From: an uncultured Methanosarcinales archaeon
Lineage (GTDB): Archaea > Nanobdellota > Nanobdellia > Woesearchaeales > JAGLXL01
Reading direction: 5' to 3'
DNA: 49,187 nt
Assembly: GCA_964472345.1 (NCBI GenBank)
Contig: CAYYLB010000002.1
Coordinates: 1 to 49,187, forward strand
Shown: piece after piece, positions 19,094 to 37,422 of the stretch
Layout: the number at the start of each line of letters is the position of its first letter
Numbering within the stretch: the stretch's first letter is position 1
Made by a program: the position numbers and the translations under genes
The notes under the pieces: model-generated
Told to the model about the DNA's origin: nothing
Seen by the model: the letters and a program-made list of their open reading frames with translations, nothing else
Databases searched by the model: none

Positions 19094-19103
19094 GATTATT
19101 CAA

Positions 19104-19326: not shown

Positions 19327-19333
19327 CCCATGT

Positions 19334-20728: not shown

Positions 20729-20751
20729 TGTACTCGCTCTTGTCTCCTGCA

Positions 20752-21677: not shown

Positions 21678-22524
21678 GCTGATCCACCTGCGCCTGCGGC
21701 GCTTTCCCTTCACAAAGGCCAACCTCTTCCTGGTCCTGCGGGTTGACTTTCGTGGTGACGAGCCTGTCGAGCGCATCGACGCAGGCGTAGATAAGGTTCA
21801 GCGTGGTGCGGCTCATGCCAAATGCCTTGCTCCAGACATCACGGATGCCTGCGAGACGCAATATTTTCTGAATCTCTGACTGTGCAACGAGGCCTTTGCC
21901 CTTGGGCGCGGGCATGAGGCGCAGGCGAATGGAGCCGCATCTGCCTTCAACCGCATAGGGGATTGAATGGGGTGCCCGGCAGCCGCATTCCCAGCTGCCG
22001 CAGCCACGGCGGATTTTCCTGATGTTGAGCTTCGCGCGGCGCAGCGCCTTTTCGCGCGCGGGGACTGTTTCCTTGCTCTTGCCATAGCCGACTCCGACGT
22101 ACCCGTCCTTATTTCCGACGACTGCGCAGACGGCAAACTTCGGCTTGTTCCCTTCCGCCGTTTTCTTCTGGGTCTGGCGGAACATGCGGCGCTGGCCGCC
22201 GCCGAATTTTCCTTTTGCCTGGCCGATGAGAAGGAGATCATTCTCAAGGCCCGGCAGGAGCACATCGATGATTTCCGGCTCAAAAATCACCTGCCCCTGG
22301 TCGAGGATGGTCTCGATGGAGGCAATGCTGCCCTCTTTCACTTTTTTTCCGAGTGCGGAACGGGGCTGCCAGCGATCACGTGAGGTTGGTTTAGCAGGAG
22401 GAACCTCACCCGCAGCAACCGGCCCGATGATGGGCGCGGCCGCTTCAGCTTCCGGCTGCAACTCCGCGGCAGGAGGCGCGGCGGGAGATGGATTATCCAA
22501 CGGGGCTTTGTTTTCGGGGTTCAT
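21670..22524 (-). CDS. rps5: 30S ribosomal protein uS5
   Basis: VVGNKDGYVGVG, RGCGSWEC, PHSIP, PAPKGKGL, LAGIRDVW. Confidence 0.97.
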   Translation of the reverse strand: MNPENKAPLDNPSPAAPPAAELQPEAEAAAPIIGPVAAGEVPPAKPTSRDRWQPRSALGKKVKEGSIASIETILDQGQVIFEPEIIDVLLPGLENDLLLIGQAKGKFGGGQRRMFRQTQKKTAEGNKPKFAVCAVVGNKDGYVGVGYGKSKETVPAREKALRRAKLNIRKIRRGCGSWECGCRAPHSIPYAVEGRCGSIRLRLMPAPKGKGLVAQSEIQKILRLAGIRDVWSKAFGMSRTTLNLIYACVDALDRLVTTKVNPQDQEEVGLCEGKAPQAQVDQHA

Positions 22525-23078
22525 GGTGCTTCCTCAATATTCTTTTTGATCTTTGCCACGAGCTGCGCGAGCGTGCGCGGATCTATTTTCTTCTGCTGAT
22601 ACTCCGTGAAGCGCGCATGCGGCGCGGCGCCGGCGGCAATGTGCTCCCCCCGGATGCGATCGCCGCTGGGGAGCTGATCCTCCGCCACGGGAACGCCCAC
22701 GCCTGCGTCGAGCAGGCCTTTCACACATGCATAGATGCGGCTTCCCCTTATCGGGGTCCGCGGCCCTGTGTCGAGAATGGCGCGCGTGATGCCCTTCGCG
22801 ACTGCTTTTTTTCCGAGCAGATATCCGGTGAGATAGGCAGCGGGCAGATTGCCCTTGTGGACGGGATAACCCCGCTCATCGAGCGCATGGGAGTGAACCC
22901 CGGCAAGCACGCGATCGCCTTCCGGGCGGTACTCGATGAGCTGTGCAGTGATGTTCCTGAGCGCGGGGCGTATCACCACGCGGGGAGCGCCTGCCTTGAG
23001 CAGCTCGCGCCGCTTGCGGTAATCCGTCCTGCCTTCACGTTTTCTCCGGAATGGGATGGTACGCAGACGCGAGGTCAT
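22521..23078 (-). CDS. rpl18: 50S ribosomal protein uL18
   Basis: RRKREGRTDYRKR, NLPAAYLTG, GLLDAG. Confidence 0.96.
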   Translation of the reverse strand: MTSRLRTIPFRRKREGRTDYRKRRELLKAGAPRVVIRPALRNITAQLIEYRPEGDRVLAGVHSHALDERGYPVHKGNLPAAYLTGYLLGKKAVAKGITRAILDTGPRTPIRGSRIYACVKGLLDAGVGVPVAEDQLPSGDRIRGEHIAAGAAPHARFTEYQQKKIDPRTLAQLVAKIKKNIEEAP

Positions 23079-23524
23079 TTTTTCATCAGCCCCCGCTCAT
23101 CGAGGTAGAGCCGGATATTGCGGACATTGCGGAAAAATCCCCCTTTTGCCTTCGTGTAGAGCGAGCGGTAGGTTTGCTGATCAATGCGGCTTTCTGCGAG
23201 CAGCCCGCGGATCAGCCGGCGCTGGCTGCGGATTTTTGCAATCCACGCCTCTTTCTTATTCAGACGGGCGCCCCGCCGCCCTTTCCTGCTTCCCTGGCCG
23301 CGGCGCTGACCGCGCTGTTTCTTGCGCGCGAACTTCCGGGCGCGCGCCCGCGAGATACCTGCCACAGGGCGCTCGGCGACCGCACCTTCGCCGATCAAGC
23401 CGCGGAGATCAGCTTTCGTGATGGCCTCCTTGATATCGCCGAGCCGTTCCGGATCGAAGCGCACACGGTGGGGCGAGCATTTCAAGAGCTGTGCGGCAAG
23501 CCGGCGCTGGGTGGCAAGGCTCAT
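23075..23524 (-). CDS. rpl19e: 50S ribosomal protein eL19
   Basis: QRRLAAQLLKC, GSRKG, WIAKIR, YTKAKGGFF. Confidence 0.96.
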   Translation of the reverse strand: MSLATQRRLAAQLLKCSPHRVRFDPERLGDIKEAITKADLRGLIGEGAVAERPVAGISRARARKFARKKQRGQRRGQGSRKGRRGARLNKKEAWIAKIRSQRRLIRGLLAESRIDQQTYRSLYTKAKGGFFRNVRNIRLYLDERGLMKK

Positions 23525-24153
23525 GGAGCTATCATCACCTTTTCCGCTTCGCGGCGCTGCTCTTCACGCTGCTGCTTTTCTCCTTCCTTCGGCTGGATGT
23601 CCTTCGACGGAGCGGGCGTTATTGGTGTTATTGCCTGATCGCGTTTCTCCTGCTTCGCCTTGGGCCTGGGCTGCTGCTTTTCTGCTACTGAAGGCCGCTT
23701 CTGTCTCTCAGCACGCCGCCTCTCGGCACGGATCCGCGAACGCTCTTCCCAGGCTTTCTGAATCTGGACGCGCCGGGAGGCCGGGTCCCTGGCATCCATC
23801 AGTGCGAAGCCTTTCTGCTCTGCGATGGTCAGGAGCGCAAGGCGCTTGCGCGTCCCAAGCGACGCCGCGAGTATGAGCGCGTGCCTTTTCGGATCGAGAA
23901 GGCCGACCTCATGCTGGTTATGCACCCGTACGGGTGTGCGACCATCACCGAGGATGCCGCGCAGCGACTGCGGCGTGCGATAGCCAATGCTGACAACATC
24001 GGGATGGCCCTTGCGGTGCTCGCGCATCTTGGAGTGAATGCCCCTCGGCTTACGCCATTTGGCGCCGAGCCTCTTGAACCGGCCGGCGTCCTGCCTCACA
24101 AATGCGGGCTTCCGCCGCTTCATCATTTGGCTTGTTTCGGGATGCGGTTTCAT
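23521..24153 (-). CDS. rpl32e: 50S ribosomal protein eL32 with long C-terminal extension
   Basis: KPAFVRQD..WRKPRGIHSKMR..IGYRTP. Confidence 0.93.
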   Translation of the reverse strand: MKPHPETSQMMKRRKPAFVRQDAGRFKRLGAKWRKPRGIHSKMREHRKGHPDVVSIGYRTPQSLRGILGDGRTPVRVHNQHEVGLLDPKRHALILAASLGTRKRLALLTIAEQKGFALMDARDPASRRVQIQKAWEERSRIRAERRRAERQKRPSVAEKQQPRPKAKQEKRDQAITPITPAPSKDIQPKEGEKQQREEQRREAEKVMIAP

Positions 24154-24155
24154 TT

Positions 24156-24785
24156 TCAGATGATGGGCTTGCCGTCTTTCCTGGTGAGGAAGATCCCATC
24201 CTGGAAGACACGGCGATCGCGGCCCGTGACGCGCGTGAGCAGCTCGATGCGGGATGCGACGCGGCCTGCGAGCTCCTTGTCGCTGCTCTCGACTCGAACG
24301 ACGTCGCCCTCGACCTTGACGACGGCGCCCTCGGGCAATACCAAGGTGCGGGGGGCATTCTCGCCAAGGAAATTCTTGACAATGAATTCCTTGCCTGCCA
24401 CGGAGACATTCATCGGAAAGTGGACGGAGCAAATTTTCAGCTCATAGGTGTGACCCTCGGCAGCGCCCCGGAACATGTTCCTGGCGTGCGCGGCGAGCGT
24501 GTAGAGCTGCTTCTTTTCCCGCTTTGTTGCGCGCGAGCTTTCCATCACCAGCTTGTTGCTTTCCTTGGTGATGCGCACCAGGGGACTCATCAGGGCGCGG
24601 CGTACGGCGCCATGGGGGCCCTTGGTGGCCAGCCCGCCGCCGGACTTCTGATCCACCTCGACCTGGACGCCCTGCGGAAGCTCGAGCTCGAGGCGAAGCC
24701 CCTGGCTGGCTGGTTTGGCTGGTTTGGCTGCTGCGGCTCCCCTGCCGGACTTCCGGTGCCGGCCGCCTTTCATTGCGCTGCTCAT
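24156..24785 (-). CDS. rpl6: 50S ribosomal protein uL6
   Basis: HARNMFRG, HFPMNV, NFLGE, DRRVFQDGIF. Confidence 0.95.
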   Translation of the reverse strand: MSSAMKGGRHRKSGRGAAAAKPAKPASQGLRLELELPQGVQVEVDQKSGGGLATKGPHGAVRRALMSPLVRITKESNKLVMESSRATKREKKQLYTLAAHARNMFRGAAEGHTYELKICSVHFPMNVSVAGKEFIVKNFLGENAPRTLVLPEGAVVKVEGDVVRVESSDKELAGRVASRIELLTRVTGRDRRVFQDGIFLTRKDGKPII

Positions 24786-24808
24786 CGTGGTTTGTGCGAA
24801 ACTGCCTA

Positions 24809-25201
24809 TCAGTAGCAGTAGGCGATAAGTTTCCACCCCCTATTCTGCTGTTTTGCCTCCTCGTTCGTCATGAGGCCCTGTGACGTGGAGAGGATGAGGA
24901 TGCCAAAGCCCTGCGCAGGCAGATAGCGCTTCTCCCATTTCTCCATTTCCGTGACCTTCGTGCTGAAGCGCGGCTTCACCGAGCCGCACTTGTTCATCGT
25001 CCCGAGCAGATGGACCTTGAGCATGCCGCCGCGGCCGTCGTCGAGCTCCTCATACTTGCCGATGTAGAGGTTCTGGTTCATGATCTCAAGGATCCTCTTC
25101 AGCACCTTCGAGACCGGCGCGAGGGTGCATTCTTTCCTTCCGATCCTCTCTGCGTTGAGAATCTTCGACAATGCTGCGGAAAGGGTATCGTTCATGACCA
25201 T
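24809..25201 (-). CDS. rps8: 30S ribosomal protein uS8
   Basis: NKCGSVKPRF, WEKRYLPA, STSQGLMT, LIAYCY. Confidence 0.96.
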   Translation of the reverse strand: MVMNDTLSAALSKILNAERIGRKECTLAPVSKVLKRILEIMNQNLYIGKYEELDDGRGGMLKVHLLGTMNKCGSVKPRFSTKVTEMEKWEKRYLPAQGFGILILSTSQGLMTNEEAKQQNRGWKLIAYCY

Positions 25202-25207
25202 GGTTCA

Positions 25208-25438
25208 TCAACTGTATTTTTTAAAGCCGATCCGTGAGGCGATCTCTCGGAAACACTGGCGGCACAGGCCAATGCCATACTTGCGGATGTGGCCGCCGAC
25301 GCGATTGCAGCGGTGGCAGTGGCGCAGCGCCAATCCGCAGCTCCGCGCCTTCGGCTTGTTCCATTTCTCGTATTTCTTCCATTTGACTGGCTTTGCCTTG
25401 AGCTGGGCGGAGACTTTTCTCCAGTCGCTGGTTGTCAT
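25208..25438 (-). CDS. rps14: 30S ribosomal protein uS14
   Basis: [25 protein letters not shown]. Confidence 0.95.
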
Positions 25439-25977
25439 GAGGATGCCTCCTCCTGCACCATGCGCGTCTGAAAGCGCTCCTGCATGAACTGCATCACGTC
25501 TGCGGGGGTCGTGCGATGGCGCGCGGGAATCGTGCGTGACATGACTTTTCGCCGCTTGATGTGGAAGCCTGCGCGCCCGAGCGTCACCGAAACCTCGAGA
25601 CCCATCATCTTAAGGTCAGGATCATAGCTCACACCCGGAATGTCGATGTATTCCGCGATGCCGAAGGAAAAATTCCCTTCGCGGTCAAACTGCCCGGCAT
25701 TGAGCTTATTGCCCGCAGCCTCGAGCAGCCGCCGGAGCAGCTCTTCGGCAGCCTTGCCCCGGAGCGTGAATTTGCAGCCGATTGCCAGGCCCGGACGGAG
25801 GCCCCAGGCAGGAATGCGCTTATGGGTCATCGTCTTTTGAGGTTCGACACCGGTGATCTTCCTGAGCAGCGCAATGCCTCGCTTGAGCTTTTCCTCGTCC
25901 TTTCCCGCACCGATGTTGAGGGTTATTTTCTCGACCCTAATCTTCCGCATCGGATTTTTCGCTTCGTCTTGGTTCAT
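25435..25977 (-). CDS. rpl5: 50S ribosomal protein uL5
   Basis: [34 protein letters not shown]. Confidence 0.96.
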
Positions 25978-26683
25978 TGGCAATCTCATTGGTGGTTTCA
26001 TTGGTGATCGTTACCAGCGGCCTGGTCTCGCCCACCGCCATCACATACTCCTTGAGGGTTTCTATCACGCTGTGCTGTGCATCTTCATACATCACTCTTG
26101 CCCCTTTGAGCTGCTGCATGGACCCATGGCTGCCGCGGCGCTTCCCTTCCACCACATAGAGCGGAGCATTCGGCACGAGCCTGAGCACCTTGGTGAGGGT
26201 GCCCTGGGGGAGCGCCAGCACGACACTATCGCCAACATTCGGGGCATTGTCGGTGAGCAGCGTTCTCCCGTCATGCAGTGTCACCTGTATTTTCCCCCCC
26301 CGGATGACCTGCTTTCGCATAATGCGGCACACCTTCACCGCCTGTTCCTGCGCGGGGATGGGGACGAGCTGCAGGCGCCCTTTCCCGTCGAACAGGACGC
26401 GGTAGCATTCATTGAGCAAGGGGATGCCCACCACATCGAAGAGGCCGATGGCCTGGCGCAGATCGTGCGCGGCGGCACCGTCGACGAGGACACTTTTTGC
26501 CCTCAGGATCTTTTTCCCTTCGCGCGCAGACTGCACCTTGCCAAGCACGTCGCGCAGGATGACAATAAGGGGAAGCGAGCGGCGGAGCGGGTGGCGGCCG
26601 GGACTCGGGCGAGAGATGAACGTGCCGGCCTTGCGGCTGAGATTCCAGGTCCGCGGCGCACGCAGGCGCTTGAGATGGCTCAT
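25937..26683 (-). CDS. rps4e: 30S ribosomal protein eS4
   Basis: HLKRLRAPRTW, RPSPGRH, IGLFDVV, LHDGRT. Confidence 0.95.
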   Translation of the reverse strand: MSHLKRLRAPRTWNLSRKAGTFISRPSPGRHPLRRSLPLIVILRDVLGKVQSAREGKKILRAKSVLVDGAAAHDLRQAIGLFDVVGIPLLNECYRVLFDGKGRLQLVPIPAQEQAVKVCRIMRKQVIRGGKIQVTLHDGRTLLTDNAPNVGDSVVLALPQGTLTKVLRLVPNAPLYVVEGKRRGSHGSMQQLKGARVMYEDAQHSVIETLKEYVMAVGETRPLVTITNETTNEIANEPRRSEKSDAED

Positions 26684-27087
26684 GGCGCTGCTTCCCTCAT
26701 TTCCGCTCCTGGGTTCGCCCCGAGCTTCTGTTTCCTGAGCTTGTCGCTGAAATCAAGCTCGATGATCATGACGTTTGACGGGTGAATCGGCGCGAGGAGC
26801 TTCGCTCCGTCTTTCTTGGTGCGCTCGATGCCGGTGAGCTCGAGACGCTCGTTGCGATAGTCGACGCGCTCCACTTTTGCCTCCTTGGAGCGCGCGTGGC
26901 CGCGCATGACCCTCACCCTATCGCCACGCCGGACCGTGAGCGAGCGCCTGCGGTATTTCTTCCGCAGCTCCTTTGAGAGCGCGGCGTGCATGAGCTTCCG
27001 CCGCAGGTGGAGCGGGAGCCTGGCCCGATACTTGCGCTGCTTGCGCGGGCTTGCGCTTGCCTTCCACGAGGGTGAAAATGGTTTCAT
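26680..27087 (-). CDS. rpl24: 50S ribosomal protein uL24
   Basis: PRKQRKY, LSKELRKKY, GDRVRVMRG, IHPSNVMI. Confidence 0.96.
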   Translation of the reverse strand: MKPFSPSWKASASPRKQRKYRARLPLHLRRKLMHAALSKELRKKYRRRSLTVRRGDRVRVMRGHARSKEAKVERVDYRNERLELTGIERTKKDGAKLLAPIHPSNVMIIELDFSDKLRKQKLGANPGAEMREAAP

Positions 27088-27094
27088 GGTGCAC

Positions 27095-27496
27095 CTAGAC
27101 GATGATGCTTGCGAGGCGTGCGACGCCCGGCCAGCGATCCGCTGCCTCCTTTGCTATGGGGCCCTTAATCATCGTCCCCTTGGGATTGCCATCCTCGTCC
27201 TTCAAGACGACCAGCGCGTTGTCCTCGAACTTGACGCGGAGGCCGTCACGCCGCCGGTATTCTTTCCGCTGCCGCACGATGATGCCGAGCACCACCTGCT
27301 TCTTCATGTCCGGGCGGCCGCGCTTGACGCTGGCGAGGACCATGTCCCCGATCCCCGCGGCCTGAATACGGCCCTTGACGGTGTTATGGCCTTTCACCCC
27401 GAAAATCCGGACGATTTTTGCGCCGGAGTTATCGCAGGCCGGGACGTACGCGCCGAAAGGAATTCCCCGCGCGAGACGTGCCTTAATCGCCTTCAT
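27095..27496 (-). CDS. rpl14: 50S ribosomal protein uL14
   Basis: CDNSGAK, FEDNA, PKGTMIKGPIAKEAA. Confidence 0.97.
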   Translation of the reverse strand: MKAIKARLARGIPFGAYVPACDNSGAKIVRIFGVKGHNTVKGRIQAAGIGDMVLASVKRGRPDMKKQVVLGIIVRQRKEYRRRDGLRVKFEDNALVVLKDEDGNPKGTMIKGPIAKEAADRWPGVARLASIIV

Positions 27497-27831
27497 GGGG
27501 ACTTCCGCCTGAGCACTTCGACAATGACAAAGTGCTTGGTCTTGCTGAGGGGGCGCGTGCGCCTGACGCGCACGGTGTCGCCGACCGCCGAGGCGATGCA
27601 GGAAGGATTATGCACATGCATGCGCGAGCGGCGGCGCTCGTAGCGCTCGTACTTCGGGAGATAAAACTGGCGCTCCCATTCGATGGTCGCACTGTTATGG
27701 GAATCTTTCCTGATGACCGCGCCAACGTGCTCTTCGTTCTTCACCAACAGCGCACCGTGCAGGGGGCATTTCTTGTCAGCGCACGCCGCCTGCGATGCGG
27801 GTGCTGCACGCGTGACCGCCTGTTTTTTCAT
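27493..27831 (-). CDS. rps17: 30S ribosomal protein uS17
   Basis: CADKKCPLHG, KYERYERRRS, RPLSKTKHF. Confidence 0.96.
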   Translation of the reverse strand: MKKQAVTRAAPASQAACADKKCPLHGALLVKNEEHVGAVIRKDSHNSATIEWERQFYLPKYERYERRRSRMHVHNPSCIASAVGDTVRVRRTRPLSKTKHFVIVEVLRRKSP

Positions 27832-28091
27832 AAGCGCTCCTCCGGTCTCCTCATCAGCTGAGCAGCAGTGATGGCACGCTGCTCCTGCCGCCCCGCAAGC
27901 TTCAGGGCGAGGCCGGCCTTGTGAATGCGCTTCCGCACGCCGTGGCGCTCAACAAGGAGAGTGTATTTCGTCTCATCGAGGACCTTTACGAGCGCATTCG
28001 CGAGCGCAGGGTGCCGCGAGGCGGTAATGCAGATGCTCTTCCCTATCAGCTCTCCGTGGTATATCTTGGGTTTCATGGCTGTCCTGCTCAT
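27828..28091 (-). CDS. rnp1: ribonuclease P protein subunit Rpp29
   Basis: ELIGK..V.DETKYTL..RPEERL; conserved position between SUI1 and rps17. Confidence 0.88.
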   Translation of the reverse strand: MSRTAMKPKIYHGELIGKSICITASRHPALANALVKVLDETKYTLLVERHGVRKRIHKAGLALKLAGRQEQRAITAAQLMRRPEERL

Positions 28092-28390
28092 CTCACTTCG
28101 ACCGTCTCCCCGGGAAAGCCGAGCTCGAGCAGCGCGGGCTTCATACGCGCCCGGTGGTCGCCCTGCAGCTCGATGTGGTCACCTTTCATTGTCCCGCCGC
28201 ATGCAAATTTCATTTTCAGCTTCCTCGCCAAATCGTTGGTGTCGATTCCCTTTCCAAACCCCTTAATGATGGTATAGTTCTTGCCGAACTTCCGCTTTTC
28301 GAGGGCAACGGTAATTTTTTGGCTCTCCTTCGCAATGGTCTCGCAGACGCAGAGATCCTGCGGGAGGCCGCAGTTGGGGCAAACGTTCAT
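28088..28390 (-). CDS. translation initiation factor aIF1/SUI1
   Basis: CPNCGLPQDLCVCE, KFACGGT, IELQGDH. Confidence 0.95.
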   Translation of the reverse strand: MNVCPNCGLPQDLCVCETIAKESQKITVALEKRKFGKNYTIIKGFGKGIDTNDLARKLKMKFACGGTMKGDHIELQGDHRARMKPALLELGFPGETVEVR

Positions 28391-28623
28391 TGCTTTGCGC
28401 GCCCTCCCCGCTTCCCGGACTGCATGGCAGGGTTCACCGAATCCGCGGCGAGCAGGGCGTTGATGCGTGCAAGCGTCTTCTTGACGGTGCGCACCTTGCC
28501 CGGGTTCTGGATCCCTGCGCCGAGGGCGATCTGCGCGTTTGTCTTGAGGATCTCCTTGCGCAATTCCTGCCGCTTTGCCGCGAGGTCAGTTTTGGGCAGC
28601 GCCCGCAGCTCCTTCAGCTTCAT
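28387..28623 (-). CDS. rpl29: 50S ribosomal protein uL29
   Basis: KELRAL, NPGKVRTVKKTLARINA. Confidence 0.93.
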   Translation of the reverse strand: MKLKELRALPKTDLAAKRQELRKEILKTNAQIALGAGIQNPGKVRTVKKTLARINALLAADSVNPAMQSGKRGGRAKQ

Positions 28624-29416
28624 GAGTGGGTTCCTCCGTCACCTTTTTTCTCGTTTTCGCCGCACGCGGCCTGGCCGCACGCTTGCGCGCCTTCCCGGGC
28701 TTCTCTTCTGCGGGCTTCTCTTCCGCCGCGGCGCCCGCCGTTGCCGGCTGCGCTGCCGGCTGTTCCGACGCTGGGCCGATGCCGGATGCAGCTGCAGGCG
28801 CCTCCTGCGGGGCGGCGGGCTGCTCTTTCCAGCGGATGTCATCAGGCAGGCGGATGTCGGGCGGCATGATGCTCACGCGTATCCCGACAATGCCGGGCTT
28901 CAGCAGTGCGGAGCGCGTCGCCTTGCGGACGGAAACCTGGGCGGCATCGCCGCATTTCTTGACATAACCCTGGTAAAAACGCCAGGAGCGTGCGCGGGCG
29001 CCCGGAAGCTTGCCCGAGAGGATGATCTCAACGCCGCGGGCGCCGGCTTCCATGATCTTCTCAATCATCTTGTGGCCGATGCCCTTGAAGCGGTTCGTGC
29101 CGTAGCGCTCGAGCGATGAGGCAATGCGTTCCGCGACGATATTCGGGTCGAGGAATATGTTGGTCACCTCGCCGATCTCAATCTGTGGGTTCTCGAGGTT
29201 AAACTGCTTCTTGAGCTTCCTCGTCAGCTCCTTGATGTTGGCGCCGCGGCGGCCGACAATGATGCTCGGGCGGCTCGCATAGATAATAATCTTCTCCCCC
29301 AGCGGCGTTTTCTTCATGAGTGTCTGTGAATGGCCGACGTTGCCGAGCGACTGGTCAATAAATTCCTGCACCTGGAATTCCCTCAGCTTCTGTGCGACAA
29401 ACTCACGTTCCATCAT
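28586..29416 (-). CDS. rps3: 30S ribosomal protein uS3
   Basis: TPLGEKIII, GRRGANI, GARGVEIILSGK, GIVGIRVSIMPP. Confidence 0.97.
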   Translation of the reverse strand: MMEREFVAQKLREFQVQEFIDQSLGNVGHSQTLMKKTPLGEKIIIYASRPSIIVGRRGANIKELTRKLKKQFNLENPQIEIGEVTNIFLDPNIVAERIASSLERYGTNRFKGIGHKMIEKIMEAGARGVEIILSGKLPGARARSWRFYQGYVKKCGDAAQVSVRKATRSALLKPGIVGIRVSIMPPDIRLPDDIRWKEQPAAPQEAPAAASGIGPASEQPAAQPATAGAAAEEKPAEEKPGKARKRAARPRAAKTRKKVTEEPTHEAEGAAGAAQN

Positions 29417-29925
29417 GATGCACCACTCCCCCGCGGTGCAGGAGGCTGCAGTGCGGTGCGCGGCCCGGCCTGCTGCTTCCTTTCCGGCTTCTTTTCCTGC
29501 GCACGCTCCTGCACCACAATCTCGATATGCGCCCGCTTCGTGACACGGCCCCGGTGCCGGCCTGCGTGTAGGGGGCGAGCGGCGCGGTGCGCTGCGATGT
29601 GCGCGACGACGAGCTTTGAGGTGTTCATCCCCTTGAATTGCGCGTTCACCTCAACCGACTGGAGCAGGCGCAAAATGGCCCTGCAGGTGCTCACCGGATA
29701 GCGGCCTGCGGCAATGCCCCGCTTGTGCCCCAGGTCCCAGCTGTAGCGCAGGTAGGGAACGGCACGCTGCTTCTTCGCCGCCTGCTCGAGGAGCACCTTT
29801 GCGGCGGAGAGCGGCTTCCCGCGGATCCAGCGGCACACCTCAACGCTGTGCTTGACGCTCACGGGGGCGTCGCGCGCAACGGCGCGTGCGCCTTCCATCG
29901 CTGTCGCATAGTGGTGGGATGCCAT
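29413..29925 (-). CDS. rpl22: 50S ribosomal protein uL22
   Basis: SVKHSVEVC, GRYP, NAQFKG, HIEIVV. Confidence 0.95.
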   Translation of the reverse strand: MASHHYATAMEGARAVARDAPVSVKHSVEVCRWIRGKPLSAAKVLLEQAAKKQRAVPYLRYSWDLGHKRGIAAGRYPVSTCRAILRLLQSVEVNAQFKGMNTSKLVVAHIAAHRAARPLHAGRHRGRVTKRAHIEIVVQERAQEKKPERKQQAGPRTALQPPAPRGSGAS

Positions 29926-30309
29926 TTATTTCACCGAAATCGCCGAGCTTGAGCGCGTGGCACCAATGCCCGGAGCGCTGTGATGGACCCCTTTCCGCGT
30001 CAATGCGAACTCGCCAAGCCGATGGCCGAGCATGTCAAGCTCAATCATGAGGGGAACAAATTCCTTGCCCATGTGGACCTTCACCGAGGTGCCGAGCAGC
30101 GCGGGAACGATCACCATGTCGCGGCAGTGGGTCTCGATGTTTTTCTTTCCGCGCTGGACACGCTTGAGGAATTTCTGCTCTGCGGACGTGAAGCCGCGAC
30201 GCAGCTTGCGGCGCTCACGCGAGGGAACGAGCTTCATAAATTCAGCGAGCTCCATGTGCTGGAGCTCTTCCAAGGTTTTGCCACGCCACCGAAGCTCTTT
30301 CTTGACCAT
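29926..30309 (-). CDS. rps19: 30S ribosomal protein uS19
   Basis: RGKTLEEL, THCRDMVIVP, GHRLGEFALTRK, GATRSS. Confidence 0.97.
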   Translation of the reverse strand: MVKKELRWRGKTLEELQHMELAEFMKLVPSRERRKLRRGFTSAEQKFLKRVQRGKKNIETHCRDMVIVPALLGTSVKVHMGKEFVPLMIELDMLGHRLGEFALTRKGVHHSAPGIGATRSSSAISVK

Positions 30310-30322
30310 TGGTTACCTTTGG

Positions 30323-31027
30323 TTACCTCTTCATGCCCGTGCGGCGCGGGCGCAGTTTCCCGACGTTCCTCCCGGGGGGAGCGTACCGCGGAGCAATGGT
30401 GGGACCGCGCTTTGCGCCGCGCGAGCTGCCGTAGGGATGGTCAACGGCATTCATGCTCACGCCCGAGACGCGCGGCCAGACCTTGTTCTTTGCGCGCATC
30501 GCGTACCAGCGCCGGCCTGCTTTCAGGAACGGCTTCTCGACACGGCCGCCGCCCGCCACGATGCCGATCATCGCCCGGCAGTCCGGGTAAAAGATCTTCT
30601 CTTTCTTTGACGGCAGGCGGATGACAACACCCTGGGGGTTTTTTGCGACAATCTTGGCAAAGGTGCCGCCCGCGCGGACGAACTTTCCGCCATCGCCCGG
30701 CTGCCTCTCAATATTGCAAATCATCGTCCCCTCAGGGATGTCTTTCAGCGTCATGATATTCCCCGGCCGGCTTGCGGCTGCACCTGACTGCACTTCGTCG
30801 CCGATGCGAAGGCCCTCGACGGCAACTGCAAGGCATTCCTCACCATCACCATACATGATGCGGGCGAGCGGAGCGCTGTGGCCGGCGCAATGCAGGAACT
30901 CCGTGATACGGCCCGTGGCATCGCGGAGCGTCGGCTTGAGGCGGGATGCGCCCTGCCAGCGGTGGCTCGGAGCGCGATACGTGCTTGAGCCTTTCCCGCG
31001 CTTTTGCTGGATAATGGTCTTTCCCAT
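30323..31027 (-). CDS. rpl2: 50S ribosomal protein uL2
   Basis: QKRGKG, DGGKFVRAGG, WPRVSGVSMNAVDHP. Confidence 0.97.
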   Translation of the reverse strand: MGKTIIQQKRGKGSSTYRAPSHRWQGASRLKPTLRDATGRITEFLHCAGHSAPLARIMYGDGEECLAVAVEGLRIGDEVQSGAAASRPGNIMTLKDIPEGTMICNIERQPGDGGKFVRAGGTFAKIVAKNPQGVVIRLPSKKEKIFYPDCRAMIGIVAGGGRVEKPFLKAGRRWYAMRAKNKVWPRVSGVSMNAVDHPYGSSRGAKRGPTIAPRYAPPGRNVGKLRPRRTGMKR

Positions 31028-31029
31028 CG

Positions 31030-31290
31030 CTACATCAGCCCCAAATCGGTTGCGACTTCAATCGCCGGCGAACCCCTGTCCAGTGCCACGTAGGCGCGCC
31101 TTTCGCCGCGTGCCGTATTCAGCACGTTCACGCCCGTGACCTTGACCTTAAAGAGCTGCTCGACCGCAGCCTTGATCTCATTGCGCGCTGCGTGCGGAGC
31201 CACGACGAAGACGAGCTTGTTCTCTGCCTGGAGGAGACGGACGCTCTTTTCCGTCGAGAGCGGGTGGCGTATGATGGCATAAGGGTCCAT
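31030..31290 (-). CDS. rpl23: 50S ribosomal protein uL23
   Basis: HPLSTEK, NKLVFVV, IKAAVEQLF. Confidence 0.95.
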   Translation of the reverse strand: MDPYAIIRHPLSTEKSVRLLQAENKLVFVVAPHAARNEIKAAVEQLFKVKVTGVNVLNTARGERRAYVALDRGSPAIEVATDLGLM

Positions 31291-31291
31291 G

Positions 31292-32098
31292 TCAGGTGAA
31301 GAGCCTCTCCTTGCCGAGGCGCTCAATGGCGTGCTCGGTCCACAGCGTTGCACGGCCCGGCATCGCCCCGGGCGCAAGGAGCTGCGCATTCAGCGCAGCG
31401 ACGTGCGCGACGTCGCAGCCGGAGATGTTGCGTGCGGTGCGGAGCAGCGGGCAGTCGCCGCCGACGACAATCAGGATGCCTTTTTTCTTCTTATAGGGAC
31501 GGCCGCGGGCCTTGCCCTTGCCGGCGCGCACCTTTTTCACTGCGGCGCGCTGCAATTCTGCATCAAAGCCGAGCCTGGCCAGGAGCGCAACAACATCCCC
31601 GGTCTTTTCGAGGCTTTCAATCGCAGTATCAATAACAAAGGGGTAGACCACAGGCAGGCGATGCCCGCGCATCGTGACGAGCTCACGGTTGATGGTCGCT
31701 GCGATTGCGCTGCGGATGGCCTTGCGGTTTTCCTTCCTGTTGATCTTCTGCTCCCAGCGCTTGGCCGCTTTTGGGGGATGGGAGCGCCTGCCTTTGTACG
31801 TGCCGGGCGCGAACGCAGCGACCCACGAGAAGCGGGTGCCGCGGTGGCTGAGGATCTTGCGGGGGACGCGGCTGATGCCGATGCCGTAGGAGCCCTTGTA
31901 GTCGCGGCGGCGGCGCGAGAGCTTTGCGCTGACGCGCTTGCCCGCCATGGGGTGCGCGCCGTAGGACTGGCGCTGCCTGCTCTGCACTGCGAGCACCGCA
32001 CGGCGGATAATGTCCGGACGGAGAGGCTCGTGAAACTGCGGCGGCAGCTCGAGCGTGCCCTGCGCCGTGCTGTTCCGGTCAAGCTTGGGGAGTTTCAT
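31292..32098 (-). CDS. rpl4: 50S ribosomal protein uL4
   Basis: RPDIIRRAV, GRRSHPPK, KINRKE, LAPGAMPGR. Confidence 0.97.
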   Translation of the reverse strand: MKLPKLDRNSTAQGTLELPPQFHEPLRPDIIRRAVLAVQSRQRQSYGAHPMAGKRVSAKLSRRRRDYKGSYGIGISRVPRKILSHRGTRFSWVAAFAPGTYKGRRSHPPKAAKRWEQKINRKENRKAIRSAIAATINRELVTMRGHRLPVVYPFVIDTAIESLEKTGDVVALLARLGFDAELQRAAVKKVRAGKGKARGRPYKKKKGILIVVGGDCPLLRTARNISGCDVAHVAALNAQLLAPGAMPGRATLWTEHAIERLGKERLFT

Positions 32099-33051
32099 AG
32101 GACAACGGTGCGGATCGCCGGGGCCTCCTTCGGGATGTTCTTATTCGGACGGATGGGCTGCGTCAGTGTCATGACGCGCTTGCAAGGCCCCGAAACCGAG
32201 CCCTTGACGAGCATGTAGGGATTCCTGATGAGCCCGTAGTGCAGGATGCCGCCGGACGGGTTGATGTCCTTTGCCGGTGCGCCGAGCCTGAGGATCCACT
32301 TGTTGTACTCGGTGCGCTGGTTGTAGCCCATCTTGGCGCTGTGCGGGGCAGTCCACATCTTCGGGCCGGTCCATGAGCCGCGGACGTTGGCGCGGCGCGC
32401 CTTCTCTGACTTGTGGTGGCGGAGCATGACGCCGTGGCGCTTCACCGGGCCCTGAAAGCCCTTTCCCTTGGTGATGGCGTGGATGTCAACCGCCGCGCCC
32501 TCCCTGAAGACCTCATCGACGCGGATCTCCCTGCCGAGCTTCTCTTTCGCGTAGCTGAGCTTCTGCTCCTTCGTCCCGCCGACGGCGAGCTCGGCGAGCT
32601 TGGGCTTTTTCGTCCCTATGCCGGTCGCCCCGGGCTGCGTGTGGACAAGCAGGCGGAGATCATCAAATTCAGCCATGTCTTCGAGCTTTTTCCTGACCTT
32701 CTTCGGAAGCGGGAGAACGCGGCTGAGCTCCTTGTCGGGAGCCGGTGAGAAGATGGTTGCGGCCAGCTGCGGGCCGTTGATCGTGTGCCTGTAGAAATTG
32801 ACGGCAGCGACCTGCAGCGGAGGGCACTCGATGATCGTCGCGGGCAGGGCGAGATCCTCTCCCTTGCTGGGCGACTTGGGGCGGTTGTCGATGGCAATGA
32901 CGTGGCACATGCCGGCCTTGTAGCCAAGGAAGCCCAGCGGCTTCGCATCCTTCTGCTGAGGCCACTGCCTAATCCGGGCGGCCTCGCGCTTCGCTCTGCG
33001 CCTTGGCCAGAACTGCAATGTTCCGTGACGTGGTGCGTGTCTCTTTGACAT
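32095..33051 (-). CDS. rpl3: 50S ribosomal protein uL3
   Basis: PRHGTLQFWPR, GYKAGM, TKGKGFQGPVKR, MGYNQRTEYNK, KGSVSGP. Confidence 0.97.
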   Translation of the reverse strand: MSKRHAPRHGTLQFWPRRRAKREAARIRQWPQQKDAKPLGFLGYKAGMCHVIAIDNRPKSPSKGEDLALPATIIECPPLQVAAVNFYRHTINGPQLAATIFSPAPDKELSRVLPLPKKVRKKLEDMAEFDDLRLLVHTQPGATGIGTKKPKLAELAVGGTKEQKLSYAKEKLGREIRVDEVFREGAAVDIHAITKGKGFQGPVKRHGVMLRHHKSEKARRANVRGSWTGPKMWTAPHSAKMGYNQRTEYNKWILRLGAPAKDINPSGGILHYGLIRNPYMLVKGSVSGPCKRVMTLTQPIRPNKNIPKEAPAIRTVVL

Positions 33052-33070
33052 GGGAATGGGAAAAGGCCCC

Positions 33071-33182
33071 TCAAGAACTTGCGCTGGCGGCTGCCATCAC
33101 AAGCCTTTTGCTGGATTCTCACTCCGCCGACTCGAGAGGATCCTTTTCAGGCTTTCGTACGCGTGATGCAAGCGCTTCTTGA
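33071..33182 (-). promoter_or_regulatory. structured 5' leader of the ribosomal operon (candidate r-leader)
   Basis: Six nested complementary segments; lies between TATA (33219-33226) and the rpl3 start. Confidence 0.55.
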
Positions 33183-33218
33183 TCACGTCGTGAGGTGGGA
33201 GCGCGGGAAGGGAGGGGG

Positions 33219-33226
33219 TTTATAAA
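33219..33226 (-). promoter_or_regulatory. TATA box of the ribosomal operon
   Basis: TTTATAAA in GC-rich context with AACC upstream on the minus strand. Confidence 0.6.
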
Positions 33227-33295
33227 GGTTGTGGTGGTGTGTGTTGTTGCTTTTTAGTAGTTAATTATATAAACACCTGGCTTATCAGTAGCGCG

Positions 33296-33964
33296 ATGGA
33301 GCAGAACGAGGGGGTCGAGGATGGATTTACCCTACGGCTTGAGGCTAGGCTGAGGAATGCGAAGCTTGTGAAGGCGCGGGAAGAGGTAAAGATGCGGTTC
33401 GGGCTAACGGAAAAGGATGTCGCGCGCGGGATGGGTATCTGCTTTACCAGTTTATACAGGTACGAGCGAATGCAGTGCTACCCCAGCCCCGCGACCCAAA
33501 AAAAAATCTGCGACTATTATCGGAAGATGGGGGTTTTCCTGCTTGAGGAAGATATTTTTCCCGAGGAATTAAAGGTGTTTAAGCCGCAACCGAGATACCG
33601 GGCCGAGAGGGTTGTTAAGAAGGAAGTTCTCCTCACTCTTTCAGAAGTTGATCGACGGCTGCTTCCCCCTGCCGAGTACAACATCGGCGACATTCTTCGG
33701 GACAGGGAACTCCGGGAGAGAGTGGATGCTGTTTTGGGCACGCTGACGCAAAGGGAGCGGGAGATCATTTGTATGAGGTATGGCATTGGAACGCCGGAGA
33801 TGACACTCGAGGAGGTGGGGGAGAGGCTGAACATAAGCAGAGAGCGCGCACGGCAGATAGAGTACCAAGCTCTCAAAAAATTACAGCATCCACTAAACTA
33901 CGAAAAGCTTGAGGATTTTTTTGATAGAGAGGGATGGAGAAGGATCGATAGACCTCTTTCTTAA
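33296..33964 (+). CDS. XRE-type HTH + sigma-70 region 4 domain protein
   Basis: N-terminal LTEKDVARGMGI..SLYRYERMQCYPS; C-terminal LTQREREIICMRYGI..TLEEVGERLNISRERARQIEYQALKKLQHP; TATA TTATATAAA upstream. Confidence 0.85.
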   Translation: MEQNEGVEDGFTLRLEARLRNAKLVKAREEVKMRFGLTEKDVARGMGICFTSLYRYERMQCYPSPATQKKICDYYRKMGVFLLEEDIFPEELKVFKPQPRYRAERVVKKEVLLTLSEVDRRLLPPAEYNIGDILRDRELRERVDAVLGTLTQREREIICMRYGIGTPEMTLEEVGERLNISRERARQIEYQALKKLQHPLNYEKLEDFFDREGWRRIDRPLS

Positions 33965-34084
33965 CCAAGCGTGTTCCTTCATTTTGAAGCAGCGGGCTTC
34001 ACCAGCACCGCAGGCGCCACGGCTGATGACTGATCCCATCCCCCACTACCATCTTACCCTTTCTCCCCGCGCGTGGGAGGGCTC

Positions 34085-34190
34085 GCCGAAGCGGGAGCCG
34101 GAGCCGAAGCGGCGCTGGCTGCGGCCCTGCGGATGGCGGCCCTGCGGGAAGCGCCCGCGATCGCCGAAGCGCTGCGGGAAGCGGGAGCTT
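34085..34190. repeat. degenerate GC-rich tandem repeats
   Basis: Recurrent GCCGAAGCG, GCGGCCCTGCGG and GCGGGAAGCG units. Confidence 0.5.
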
Positions 34191-34416
34191 TATATTTCAT
34201 AGATAAAAAACCATTGTGGTGAAACCTACGGGCCGCCCGTCCCCAGCTTTAAAACACACGCCGACTTTTTTATTGCTGACCTGCGAATGCATCCTGTTTT
34301 GGCAGGGCTGCCGTTGAGGGCATATCGTGCAGGAAGCAAATCAGATGACGGGTGGTTTGGTGAGTTCCTGCTCGTGCCGCGATGAGTGGTTGAACACGAC
34401 AGGTAAAAATGAGGTA

Positions 34417-34851
34417 TTACCCAAGCTCTGTACAGCTGCACTCGCAGCTCATCCTGGTCCCGATCGTCGTGCTACCGAAGCCGAAGAGCTTGGGCGGCAG
34501 GCACGCGGTGCCCATCTCGTACTGGCAGGCCTGCCTGCACTGGTCTTCGGCGCAGTCAGTGCATTCCACTGCGGCGCTGCCCTCGCCTTTGGATGTTGTG
34601 GTGTAAGAAAAGGAAGGCTTGCTGAGCGTTTCCTGCTGAGGTGATTCGGGCATCTGCGGCTCAGGCACAGGCTGCGCGACGGGCAGTTGCTCGGCTGCGG
34701 GAGGCTGCGGCTTTATCTGGACGGAGAGAGCGGGGGCCTGCGGCGGCTCGGCCGCTTTTTGCGCCGGCTGCGCGGGAGCGCAGGAAACGATAAAGATGGC
34801 GGCGAGAGCGAGGATGCCCATAACCATTATCCGGGGCGTTGTTTGTCTCAT
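34417..34851 (-). CDS. small lipoprotein with Pro/Gln linker and Cys-rich C-terminus
   Basis: Lipobox IVSC; PQ-rich stalk; CTDC..C..C..C..CECSC. Confidence 0.7.
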   Translation of the reverse strand: MRQTTPRIMVMGILALAAIFIVSCAPAQPAQKAAEPPQAPALSVQIKPQPPAAEQLPVAQPVPEPQMPESPQQETLSKPSFSYTTTSKGEGSAAVECTDCAEDQCRQACQYEMGTACLPPKLFGFGSTTIGTRMSCECSCTELG

Positions 34852-34895
34852 GGGAGAAAGGAGTGAGTGATTGTTTATAAGAGTATCTGATGCCG

Positions 34896-35027
34896 GGCGT
34901 TATTGAAAAGTTCCCGTTCGCTGCGCTCGACCTGATTGTCCTTCGGACTGGCATCGAGCTGGAGCCTGGCAGGCGTCCCGCTTACGCCGGCGCTCACTGG
35001 CCCATTGGCGAACTTTTCAATAACGCC
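34896..35027. mobile_element. 132-bp MITE-like element with perfect 18-bp terminal inverted repeats
   Basis: GGCGTTATTGAAAAGTTC (34896-34913) / GAACTTTTCAATAACGCC (35010-35027); no transposase ORF inside. Confidence 0.8.
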
Positions 35028-35097
35028 GACGCCGTTTCACCACGCCGCAACATTTGCTGTCGAAGAACCGACACCTTTTTATAACGCGAGCGCTTGA

Positions 35098-37422
35098 GTG
35101 CTGCAGGTGACTAGCGTGCGCTCGATCGTCTGGTTCAAGGAGCTACACAAGGATTCTGTCGGTGTTGCCGGCGGGAAGGGCGCGAACCTCGGCGAGATGT
35201 GGAACGCACGGTTTCCCATCCCGCCGGGATTTGCCATAACCGCACAGGCGTATGGCTCATTCATCGAGCAGGCGCGCATCAAAGGCAAGATCCTTGCGCT
35301 GCTGCGGGGGCTTGATGTCGAGGACACGGCGAAGCTGCAGCGGGCTGCGGAGCAGATCCAGAAGCTGATCACTGATTCTCCAGTTCCCGAAAACCTGCAG
35401 GAGGAGATTGCGGATGCGTACGCGGTGCTCGGCGCGGGCCAGAGGACGCAGGCGCAACAGATTGTCAAAGGAGCGGAAGAATTTGTCGCAGTGAGGAGCA
35501 GCGCGACGGCTGAGGATCTGCCTGAGGCGAGCTTCGCGGGGCAGCAGGCAACGCTCCTGAACGTGCGCGGAGCGAAGGCGGTAATCGACGCGGTGCGGGA
35601 ATGCTGGGCGTCGCTGTTCACGGCGCGGGCGATCTATTACCGGCAGAAGAATGATTTCCCCCATGAGAAGGTCCTGATTGCGGTCATCGTGCAGAAGATG
35701 GTGAACAGCGCGAAATCGGGCGTCCTGTTCACCATCAACCCCGCGACCAACGATGAGCAGGAAATCATCATTGAAGGGGCTTTCGGCCTCGGCGAAGCGG
35801 TCGTTTCGGGCATGGTGAGCCCTGACCTCTATGCTGTCGACAAGAGGACGCTGCGGATAACCAAAGTGGAGAAAAAAGAGCAGAAGTTCAAAATCGTGCG
35901 CGATCCTGCGACGGGAAGCAATGTGCACGTGGCGCTCGATGCGAGCGAGGAAAAGCTGCAGGTGCTTTCTGACAAGGAGATCCTGGAGCTGGCGCGCCAA
36001 GGGAAGAAGCTTGAGGAGCATTATCAGCACCCGCAGGATGTGGAGTGGGCGATAGAGGGAGGAAATGTCTTCATCGTCCAGACGCGCGCGGTGACGACGC
36101 TGAAGCGGAAAACGGAAGAGCGCGGGGAAGTGCCGGAAGGGAAGGTGCTGCTGCGCGGGGAGACGGCAAGCAAAGGGGTTGCTGCCGGGCCAGTGAGAGT
36201 GATCCTTGACGCGCGGGAGCTTGACAAGGTGAGGCAGGGCGATGTCCTTGTCACGACGATGACCAACCCGGACATGGTCCCGGCGATGAAGAAAGCAGCT
36301 GCCGTGGTCACGGACGAAGGCGGGATGACAAGCCATGCGGCAATCGTCTCACGGGAGATGGGGATCCCCTGCATCGTCGGAACGGGGCGTGCGACGGAAG
36401 AGCTTCGTGACGGGCAGGTTGTCACCGTTGATGCGGCGCGCGGCGCGGTGTATGAGGGTGAGGTCCACGCCAAAGAAGAGGCAACGAAGGGAAGCATCGG
36501 GGCGGTCGGAAGCGCTGAAGAGCCGGTCACCGCAACGCAGGTCAAAGTAATCCTTGATTTTCCTGATCGCGCGCAGGAGGTCGCGCAGCAGACGCAGGCG
36601 GAAGGCGTCGGCCTGCTGCGGCTGGAGTTCATCATCGCGGGTGGGGGGAAGCATCCAGCGCAGTACCTCCGCGAGAAGAACGATGAGGCATACGTGCAGC
36701 TGCTCGTGACGGAAGTGGCGAAGGTCGCTGCGGCATTCAAAGGCAAGCCAGTGTGGGTGCGGTGCTCGGACCTGCGCAGCGATGAGTACCGGAACCTGAA
36801 AGGCGGAGAGCAGGAGCCTCGGGAGACGGATCCCATGATCGGGTGGCACGGAATCCGGCGGCTGCTGGACGAGCCGCGCATGCTGAAGGCAGAGTTCCTC
36901 GCGGTAAAGCAGCTGCACGAGCAGGGCTTTGCGAACGTCGGCATCATGCTGCCGTTCGTGATCAGCGCGGAGGAAGTCAGGAAAGCGAAAGCTTATTTAG
37001 GCGAGACCGGACTGGAGCCTGGAAAGGATGTTGCGTTCGGCGTGATGATCGAGACGCCGGCAGCGTGCTGGGTGATTGAGGATATCTGCAAGGAAGGGAT
37101 TGATTTTGTCTCTTTCGGCACGAACGACCTGACGCAGCTGACGCTGGGCATTGACCGCAACAATGGACGGATCCAGAAGCAGTTTGACGAGATGCATCCC
37201 GCCGTGCTTGGAGAGATGGCAAAGGTGATCCAGACCTGCAAAAAGCATGGGGTCGAAACATCAATCTGCGGGCAGGCAGCGTCGCGGCCGGAGATGGCCG
37301 CTTTCCTCGTGCGGCAGGGGATCGACAGCGTGTCGCCCAACCCGGACGCAGTGCATGAGATCCGGCACGTGATTGCGCGCGAGGAGAAGAAGGTGCTGCT
37401 GGAGAGGGGGAGGAGGACATGA
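35098..37422 (+). CDS. ppsA: phosphoenolpyruvate synthase (start may be GTG at 35107 or 35116)
   Basis: GGKGANLGEM, VAVRSSATAEDLPEASFAGQQ, GGMTSHAAIVSRE, GVGLLRLE, SFGTNDLTQ, SICGQ. Confidence 0.97.
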   Translation: MLQVTSVRSIVWFKELHKDSVGVAGGKGANLGEMWNARFPIPPGFAITAQAYGSFIEQARIKGKILALLRGLDVEDTAKLQRAAEQIQKLITDSPVPENLQEEIADAYAVLGAGQRTQAQQIVKGAEEFVAVRSSATAEDLPEASFAGQQATLLNVRGAKAVIDAVRECWASLFTARAIYYRQKNDFPHEKVLIAVIVQKMVNSAKSGVLFTINPATNDEQEIIIEGAFGLGEAVVSGMVSPDLYAVDKRTLRITKVEKKEQKFKIVRDPATGSNVHVALDASEEKLQVLSDKEILELARQGKKLEEHYQHPQDVEWAIEGGNVFIVQTRAVTTLKRKTEERGEVPEGKVLLRGETASKGVAAGPVRVILDARELDKVRQGDVLVTTMTNPDMVPAMKKAAAVVTDEGGMTSHAAIVSREMGIPCIVGTGRATEELRDGQVVTVDAARGAVYEGEVHAKEEATKGSIGAVGSAEEPVTATQVKVILDFPDRAQEVAQQTQAEGVGLLRLEFIIAGGGKHPAQYLREKNDEAYVQLLVTEVAKVAAAFKGKPVWVRCSDLRSDEYRNLKGGEQEPRETDPMIGWHGIRRLLDEPRMLKAEFLAVKQLHEQGFANVGIMLPFVISAEEVRKAKAYLGETGLEPGKDVAFGVMIETPAACWVIEDICKEGIDFVSFGTNDLTQLTLGIDRNNGRIQKQFDEMHPAVLGEMAKVIQTCKKHGVETSICGQAASRPEMAAFLVRQGIDSVSPNPDAVHEIRHVIAREEKKVLLERGRRT

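Follow-up and report, generated by a model that had tools for sequence, protein, structure and literature searches.

Transcription in archaea depends on TBP and TFB, and archaeal regulators with bacterial-type helix-turn-helix (HTH) folds mostly act on or beside promoters. Sigma-70 genes have been reported in DPANN archaea, and in Woesearchaeota in particular (fam00359; Castelle et al. 2021, PMC8204110), with their function left open by the authors in the portion of the report considered here. Neither that portion nor the other literature searched describes a protein in which an XRE-type HTH is joined to sigma region 4; the fam00359 supplements (PMC8204110) may list such members. Sigma parts in Woesearchaeota are known; the XRE plus region-4 architecture appears undescribed in the literature searched. 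We analyzed a protein with this architecture, P0001, encoded in a 49,187-nucleotide stretch of DNA (the window) from an uncultured archaeon of the order Woesearchaeales, whose genome (G000) comprises 1.26 Mb in 120 contigs with 56.9% GC and a completeness of 100. P0001 shares its organism group and its region-4 domain with the fam00359 sigma-70 genes, as presented in the same portion of PMC8204110. Unlike the DPANN sigma-like proteins, which carry region 2 and mostly region 3, the P0001 family has region 4 only, combined with an XRE domain.

The P0001 gene (33296..33964, plus strand) was delimited by its ORF, translation, Pfam matches and full-length family alignment, and its uninterrupted frame encodes 222 aa. 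We preferred the ATG at 33296 over a possible longer start, the GTG at 33239, because the family alignment starts near M1 and a TATA-like box lies inside the extension. This box, TTATATAAA (33265-33273, plus strand), is centred 27 nt 5' of the ATG, which bears out the statement of the first-pass annotation that the gene has its own TATA box; at this position, P0001 mRNA is probably leaderless or near-leaderless. A TATA-like hexamer was present at -40..-18 in 12 of 18 family genes, versus 4 and 3 of 18 in two control windows, and was often preceded by a purine-rich stretch. This pattern fits archaeal promoters and leaderless mRNAs. The GC content of the gene (52-53%) is 8-10 points lower than that of its flanks (60-65%).

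The gene lies head to head with rpl3 (32095..33051, minus strand; Ribosomal_L3, 212 bits), as originally described, and the two are separated by a divergent intergenic region of 244 bp (33052..33295). Starting at 33051, rpl3 is the first gene of an archaeal ribosomal superoperon that occupies the minus strand from 17960 to 33051, and it serves here as context only. The superoperon encodes L3, L4, L23, L2, S19, L22, S3, SUI1, S17, L14, L24/L26 and S4e, followed by L5, S8, L6, L32e, L19e, L18, S5, L30, L15, SecY and further genes on to L34e. Within the intergenic region, a second TATA-like box, TTTATAAA (33219-33226), is inverted with respect to the first and lies 43 nt from it; the two correspond to an inverted repeat (I3; 33215-33224 and 33268-33277) that is 90% complementary. 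We infer a promoter role for TTTATAAA, which could drive the leftward rpl3 operon and give it a ~145-nt leader. The minus-strand stretch 33049-33200 is likely the 5' leader of the rpl3 superoperon; it is GC-rich, folds as a long hairpin (-52.9 kcal/mol, z -2.43, with 3 of 200 shuffles folding as well) and has no Rfam match. Nothing in the window matched Rfam at the gathering score, the only signal in 32950-35150 being a chance-level sR19 match (E 0.15), and no tRNA was found in the window.

Sequencing-run contigs were compared with this region; no RNA run was listed among those that contain it. One Logan contig from run X1 (32761-33337) runs from rpl3 across the spacer into the P0001 gene, of which it covers the first 42 nt, and it does not count as independent support since X1 may be the window's source sample. 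Contigs from runs X2 and X4 depart from the window past 33122, indicating that a related population differs upstream of that point. A low-depth X4 contig (depth about 3, so that errors are possible) shows eight differences from the window within the gene (33728-33892). Three of these are synonymous, and the rest alter three codons (A145, Q152 and Y190) at positions that vary in the family; the change Q152P restores the commonest family residue. On the other side of the gene, a 144-aa ORF (34417-34851, minus strand) is convergent to it and has a lipoprotein-like N-terminus (a hydrophobic stretch, then Cys) and a Cys-rich C-terminus, with no Pfam or PADLOC match. Just upstream of a PEP synthase gene lies a MITE-like element of ~135 bp (34893-35028) with 18-bp terminal inverted repeats. 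By blastn, full or partial copies of it occur on about 22 other genome contigs, and in four runs it showed raised depth, with contig loose ends on both sides.

The C-terminal part of P0001, aa 127-210 (33674..33925, plus strand), is a sigma-70 region 4 comprising 4.1 and 4.2, as assigned by VIA-align, PDB sequence alignments and hhalign. Pfam places Sigma70_r4 (PF04545) at aa 146-198 with 68.8 bits against a cut-off of 24.1. This match alone is unremarkable, as the same model also matches in all four archaeal control genomes; what is remarkable is the RpoD-level identity. In a PDB sequence search, aa 137-210 corresponded to the C-terminal ~75 residues of RpoD/SigA and extended as far as their acidic end (residues 538-612 of 613 in E. 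coli sigma70). P0001 has the same fold as region 4 of the primary sigma factors and 36-48% identity to solved SigA/RpoD chains, reaching 59% over 79 tree columns with the metagenome sigma factor P0005. With VIA-align, the top three fold matches of aa 127-210 were all primary sigmas, including SigA (7vpd_F, Z 13.1, rmsd 1.1 Å over 81 aa) and RpoD (7ye1_F, Z 12.4). The tetra-helical fold is shared with LuxR/GerE/NarL-type and ECF-type sigma-4-like HTHs (Z 7.3-10.6). Unlike for the LuxR/GerE proteins, primary-sigma models score far better on P0001, and GerE is absent from the five Pfam families that match at E <= 1. The initial assignment of the domain to primary-sigma region 4, as opposed to a generic LuxR-type HTH, thus stands.

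No other part of a sigma factor was recognized. Sigma70_r2 and Sigma70_r3 gave no match to P0001 in Pfam at E <= 1, and the NCBIfam models for RpoD, RpoS and other sigma factors matched only about aa 120-211, with scores far below their whole-protein cut-offs. When a family profile of 115 members was aligned by hhalign with 23 RpoD-type proteins (rows from two unpublished genomes included), only the last 93 columns matched (probability 99.8%, E 1.8e-29), and no part of P0001 resembled regions 2 or 3. The absence of regions 2 and 3, noted from the sequence at the outset, was thereby corroborated. Unlike a primary sigma factor, P0001 therefore lacks regions 1.2, 2 and 3, which excludes a function as a sigma factor.

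The recognition helix of region 4.2 spans aa 182-196 (RERARQIEYQALKKL; 33839..33883, plus strand), as located by alignment to 1tlh_B. When aa 138-210 are mapped to E. coli sigma70 residues 539-612, R182, E183, R186 and Q187 align with residues 584, 585, 588 and 589, which we take to be those that read the -35 hexamer. As in primary sigmas, these equivalents are kept in P0001 and the alignment reaches the C-terminus, in agreement with the first-pass claim of a -35 recognition helix. Among the 115 aligned members, the P0001 residue is conserved in 56 (R182), 77 (E183), 92 (R184), 88 (R186), 92 (Q187), 97 (I188) and 100 (A192). We searched for the corresponding DNA element. TTGAC/GTCAA is absent from the 244-bp spacer (33052..33295), and TTGACA/TGTCAA is not enriched in the intergenic DNA of the genome (72 versus 62.2 expected, z 1.25, rank 279 of 2080, in a count that rests on crude gene calls), where TATAAA is the most over-represented hexamer. 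TTGACA being unenriched and TATAAA ranking first, nothing here points to a layer of bacterial-style promoters. No operator for P0001 was found by looking for TTGAC in its own upstream region and TTGACA in intergenic DNA. If the sigma-4 module keeps its specificity, predicted sites would be few.

The N-terminal domain, aa 10-108 (33323..33619, plus strand), was defined by AlphaFold secondary structure, VIA-align and Pfam. It consists of an XRE/lambda-repressor-like helical core (aa 17-92) flanked by strands at aa 10-17 and 101-108. Both HTH_3 (PF01381; aa 34-76, 25.7 bits versus a cut-off of 23) and HTH_31 (27.0 bits versus 27) were matched. With VIA-align, aa 17-92 superposed on 28tn_A (Z 8.8, rmsd 1.9 Å over 66 aa), P22 c2 (Z 8.5) and the N-terminal domain of CapH (Z 8.0), with ImmR, SinR, DdrO and the 434 repressor also among the matches. 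Since helical domains commonly give Z values of about 8, we base the XRE assignment on fold and Pfam score jointly. P0001 resembles XRE regulators such as P22 c2, 434 repressor, SinR, ImmR, DdrO and CapH in this core (Z 7.3-8.8); unlike them, it has an extra two-stranded sheet and an unusually conserved first helix, and its sigma-4 module takes the place of the usual dimerisation or sensor domain. Residues 32-35 (KMRF) are an insertion found in 1 of the 115 aligned members. We also considered whether the N-domain might be a decayed sigma region 3. Foldseek aligned ~190 columns, but with an rmsd of 18-20 Å; hhalign gave no match, and VIA-align places aa 17-92 with XRE domains, so this reading was rejected.

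The two domains are connected by a linker, aa 109-126 (33620..33673, plus strand), characterized by lower pLDDT and by the conserved residues L112, L115 and L123-P124. In the AlphaFold model, pLDDT was 91-98 over aa 11-110 and 77 over aa 111-130. The whole model had a pLDDT of 90.3 and a pTM of 0.55, and the latter would fit two domains that are not fixed to each other. The proposal that P0001 combines two HTHs, one of XRE type and one an RpoD-type region 4, is accordingly upheld by two domains that each pass their Pfam cut-offs and by a confident model.

The gene had been treated as singular in the first pass, and this view has to be revised, given a sizeable family and the Woesearchaeota sigma-70 genes already in print (PMC8204110, in the portion considered here). 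At least 127 sequence clusters have the full architecture, counted as those of 268 collected proteins that cover the family profile from position 30 or below to 185 or above; they include most of the best 150 representatives from an exhaustive search. That search, on representatives at 50% identity, returned 32 at E <= 1e-30, P0001 itself included, and a word-index protein search gave two other full-length relatives among the 120 matches listed. The first family alignment was too diverse for locus finding, for which a subset of nine rows served. P0001 shares 30-51% identity with 114 aligned members, over both domains and the linker. Helix 1 is the most conserved part (N21 in 109, L24 in 104, A27 in 100 and R28 in 107 of 115), and other strongly conserved places are E57, Y62-P63, F88-P89, L92, L123 and the region-4.2 helix. 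The XRE recognition-helix positions (aa 50-55) are variable across the family. Judged from these sequences, variable aa 50-55 together with a conserved helix 1 would also fit a protein-binding role. Variant members carry a second XRE domain (P0166), a second region 4 (P0182) or a tail of ~100 aa.

Where cellular copies could be placed, all were in Woesearchaeota/Nanoarchaeota-type genomes; titled GTDB records with the family comprised three of Candidatus Woesearchaeota and one of Nanoarchaeota. Full-length matches occurred in 4 of 401 genomes sampled from the order of the window's genome (G000, G077 with two copies, G178 and G279, the last of these an unpublished genome), in 4 of 401 sampled from the phylum (G000, G077, G453 and G512), and in none of eight searched genomes of its own taxonomic family. 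Another 14 loci were found in metagenomes with a motif of the closest relatives. A tree built from region 4 alone (104 rows, 80 columns) had 4 well-supported branches out of 99 inner ones, and family rows interleave with archaeal sigma rows, so it shows no origin for the module. As built from these sequences, the tree cannot separate a resident archaeal sigma factor from a bacterial or a viral source.

Region 4 itself is more widespread. A region-4 match (E <= 1e-10) was detected in 97 of 401 genomes of the order, about a quarter. Among the non-family region-4 proteins from the 25 of 27 returned loci that were scanned (L052 and L054 were left out), 24 also had region 2, most of them with 1.2 and 3 as well, and four of these 24 came from unpublished genomes (G190, G120, G251 and G139). 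In the remaining one, region 4 is joined to the alpha-CTD of a bacterial RNA polymerase (L057:895-2043, in G202 of the same order). Among the metagenome proteins P0235, P0216 and P0247, region 4 occurs in seven tandem copies, in an r4-alphaCTD-r4 arrangement and with RQC and HTH_40 domains. Region 4 thus turns up in other proteins as a freely combined module. The window's genome holds a second sigma-like gene on another contig (G000:C52:5806-6255; locus L002:1462-2160, minus strand). Its 233-aa product looks ECF-like, given a Sigma70_r2 match (37 bits) and a GerE/region-4-type C-terminus, and this gene holds the sole region-2 match in the genome. The presence of bacterial RNA polymerase was judged on the alpha-CTD marker (PF03118), which had no match in G000 and matched 10 of 10 bacterial control genomes; in contrast to the setting of a primary sigma factor, the host thus lacks this signature.

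We compared the neighbourhoods of the cellular copies. Those outside the window have TGT upstream (G178 and G077), an ORF without name followed by a nucleotidyl transferase (second copy of G077), LeuRS upstream (L024), EF-1alpha upstream (L027, L075), aIF2-beta divergent with RPA and MCM downstream (L065, L066), an unnamed gene upstream and RPA downstream (L063, L070), or DnaJ or an unnamed gene upstream with L10e as second neighbour (L026, L069). The G512 copy is divergent from (head to head with) rps13-rps4 and has DUF655, Rpb4 and L21e downstream; the others adjoin a PD-(D/E)XK nuclease next to fibrillarin (G453), Peptidase M3 and aspartokinase (L071), neighbours without name (L067, L073), or RusA, SSB and an alpha-CTD-like gene (G279). 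Where nameable, the neighbours at the metagenome loci are archaeal (aIF2-beta, RPA, MCM, L10e, EF-1alpha), and the neighbours of the cellular copies are archaeal chromosomal genes, for example also S13/S4, Rpb4 and fibrillarin. Neighbours are common within lineage groups only, where the position of the copy is stable, and no partner gene is conserved across lineage groups among the placed copies. None of the 13 other cellular contexts shows adjacency to rpl3, and in five genomes of the same taxonomic family, different genes lie upstream of rpl3 and a full-length homologue is lacking. The rpl3 adjacency, in which the first-pass annotation had seen a possible link to the ribosomal operon, is therefore particular to G000, and the operon-regulator idea is left without support from synteny. 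A translation gene is the direct neighbour in 6 of 14 cellular contexts (L3, S13, EF-1alpha, aIF2-beta, LeuRS and TGT), which gives a binomial p of 0.027 if a base rate of 18%, assumed and not measured, is used. With the base rate assumed and the classes set after the fact, this excess is a hint only.

Viral relatives were then sought. A first scan of IMG/VR with the motif of the closest relatives gave no match, and a degenerate motif scan gave 25 loci, one of them with a full-length member (family HMM E 1.2e-42). It lies on a 42-kb contig with small and large terminase, portal/head morphogenesis, tail fibre, HNH and Sak4-like genes, where it follows the HNH gene in a rightward block; its recognition helix is altered. 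The divergent early spacer of this contig (L114:8100-8200) contains three TTGACA/TGTCAA hexamers within ~45 bp, which could be host-type -35 elements or operators, and has one sigma-70-like promoter match per strand. Over the whole viral contig, sigma-70-type promoters are not enriched (20 versus 21.3 expected). With the RpoD-type recognition helix as query, 114 of the 119 IMG/VR loci listed had a region-4 ORF, and at least 14 of these ORFs match the family N-domain weakly (E 6e-10 to 6e-4). An XRE-type HTH was recognized by Pfam in 2 of 13 scanned viral ORFs (HTH_3/HTH_31 in L121, YdaS in L140). In the ESM Atlas, the closest clusters (score 0.96; 197-201 features in common) consist of Sigma70_r4 proteins of ~200 aa with HTH_3 on 12-95% of members and Viruses, mostly Uroviricota, at 75-100%; the viral labels come from the few members with a record, and these rows, having no alignments, are leads only. 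P0001 is like these ~200-aa viral HTH plus Sigma70_r4 proteins of the ESM Atlas and IMG/VR in length and domain order, with one clear member in IMG/VR; unlike it, most of the viral look-alikes are weak at the N-domain, and the clear member has a changed recognition helix. Among GenBank phages, none of 39 matching records covers 80% of the query, the matches being to region 4 only. PADLOC matched only the tail of MzaA, the sigma factor of the MZA anti-phage system, with P0001 aa 136-210 aligned to the last 76 of 683 profile positions. Given this partial match and no defence genes seen nearby, we do not count P0001 as an MzaA.

Taken together, several roles can be weighed for P0001. The viral relatives raise the possibility that it is a virus-derived immunity or switch regulator, acquired repeatedly by Woesearchaeota-type lineages and used in virus-host conflict rather than on host genes. 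Such an origin would account for the full-length member on the tailed-virus contig, the viral labels of the nearest Atlas clusters and the weak N-domain matches in 14 of the 114 listed IMG/VR ORFs, as well as for the patchy family (4 genomes in either sample of 401), the low GC of the gene (52-53% against 60-65% in the flanks) and the G279 copy beside RusA, SSB and an alpha-CTD-like gene. However, no virus genes were seen in the window and the other 12 cellular contexts, copies keep their position within lineage groups, the first IMG/VR scan was empty, no GenBank phage reached 80% query cover (0 of 39), and the Atlas rows, without alignment, are leads; we regard this origin as rather unlikely. 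We give still less weight to a dedicated regulator of the ribosomal superoperon or of translation genes acting at the back-to-back promoters in 33052-33295. The head-to-head arrangement with rpl3, the two inverted TATA-like boxes 43 nt apart, the G512 copy head to head with rps13-rps4 and the translation genes in 6 of 14 contexts (p 0.027 at the assumed 18% base rate) would all suit it. Yet rpl3 adjoins none of the other copies, the five genomes of the same taxonomic family have no full-length homologue, and about 99% of the sampled phylum genomes run their ribosomal operons without a P0001-type protein; moreover, the context classes are post hoc, and such small genomes are rich in information-processing genes.

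The sigma-4 module might instead make protein contacts, docking on a flap-like element (of archaeal subunit B or the beta-flap of a bacterial partner or prey) and so tethering or blocking polymerase. The region-4 match takes in both 4.1 and 4.2 and ends only at the C-terminus of primary sigma, and it superposes with an rmsd of 1.1-1.9 Å on sigma-4 in holoenzyme and sigma-4/flap-tip chimera structures. This is compatible with such docking, but without region 2 a sigma factor does not bind core polymerase. As G000 has no bacterial alpha-CTD, its only region-2 match belongs to the ECF-like gene on another contig and no signal peptide was seen in P0001 (in the sequence, by eye), we consider this role improbable. 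An equally speculative extension is that a virus-linked module was taken up several times and that its sigma-4 still reads a bacterial or viral -35-like element. P0001 might then recognise, silence or exploit foreign DNA with bacterial-style promoters (viruses, bacterial partners), or couple this recognition to the expression of translation genes; we attach little probability to this scenario.

The reading we favour, with slightly better than even confidence, is that P0001 is a stand-alone two-HTH, sequence-specific DNA-binding transcription regulator that is itself transcribed by the archaeal machinery. It draws on what was observed directly for P0001, namely architecture, fold, family, distribution, promoter signal and the lack of conserved synteny, and from these we infer DNA binding, mode of regulation and targets. 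In the proposed mechanism, the archaeal machinery would transcribe the gene from a BRE/TATA promoter of its own, and the mRNA would probably be leaderless. The encoded protein would join an XRE/lambda-repressor HTH through a short conserved linker to a region-4 module that presumably descended from primary (RpoD-type) sigma factors. In a cell without bacterial RNA polymerase, sigma-4 would act only as a DNA-reading module, with its putative -35-contacting residues kept, and P0001 would probably act by occupying promoters or adjacent DNA. The family occurs both in some lineages of Woesearchaeota type and in at least one tailed virus, with chromosomal places that differ by lineage.

The role of sigma-factor parts in archaea has been a question since the 2021 report of DPANN sigma-70 genes. 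P0001 represents the simplest form of that puzzle, an isolated -35-reading domain together with a second HTH, and it is small enough for expression and DNA tests. If a binding site for P0001 were defined, it would tell whether the bacterial specificity of region 4 persists in an archaeal setting. The connection with tailed viruses, in turn, hints at one way in which transcription modules of bacterial type may have entered these archaea.
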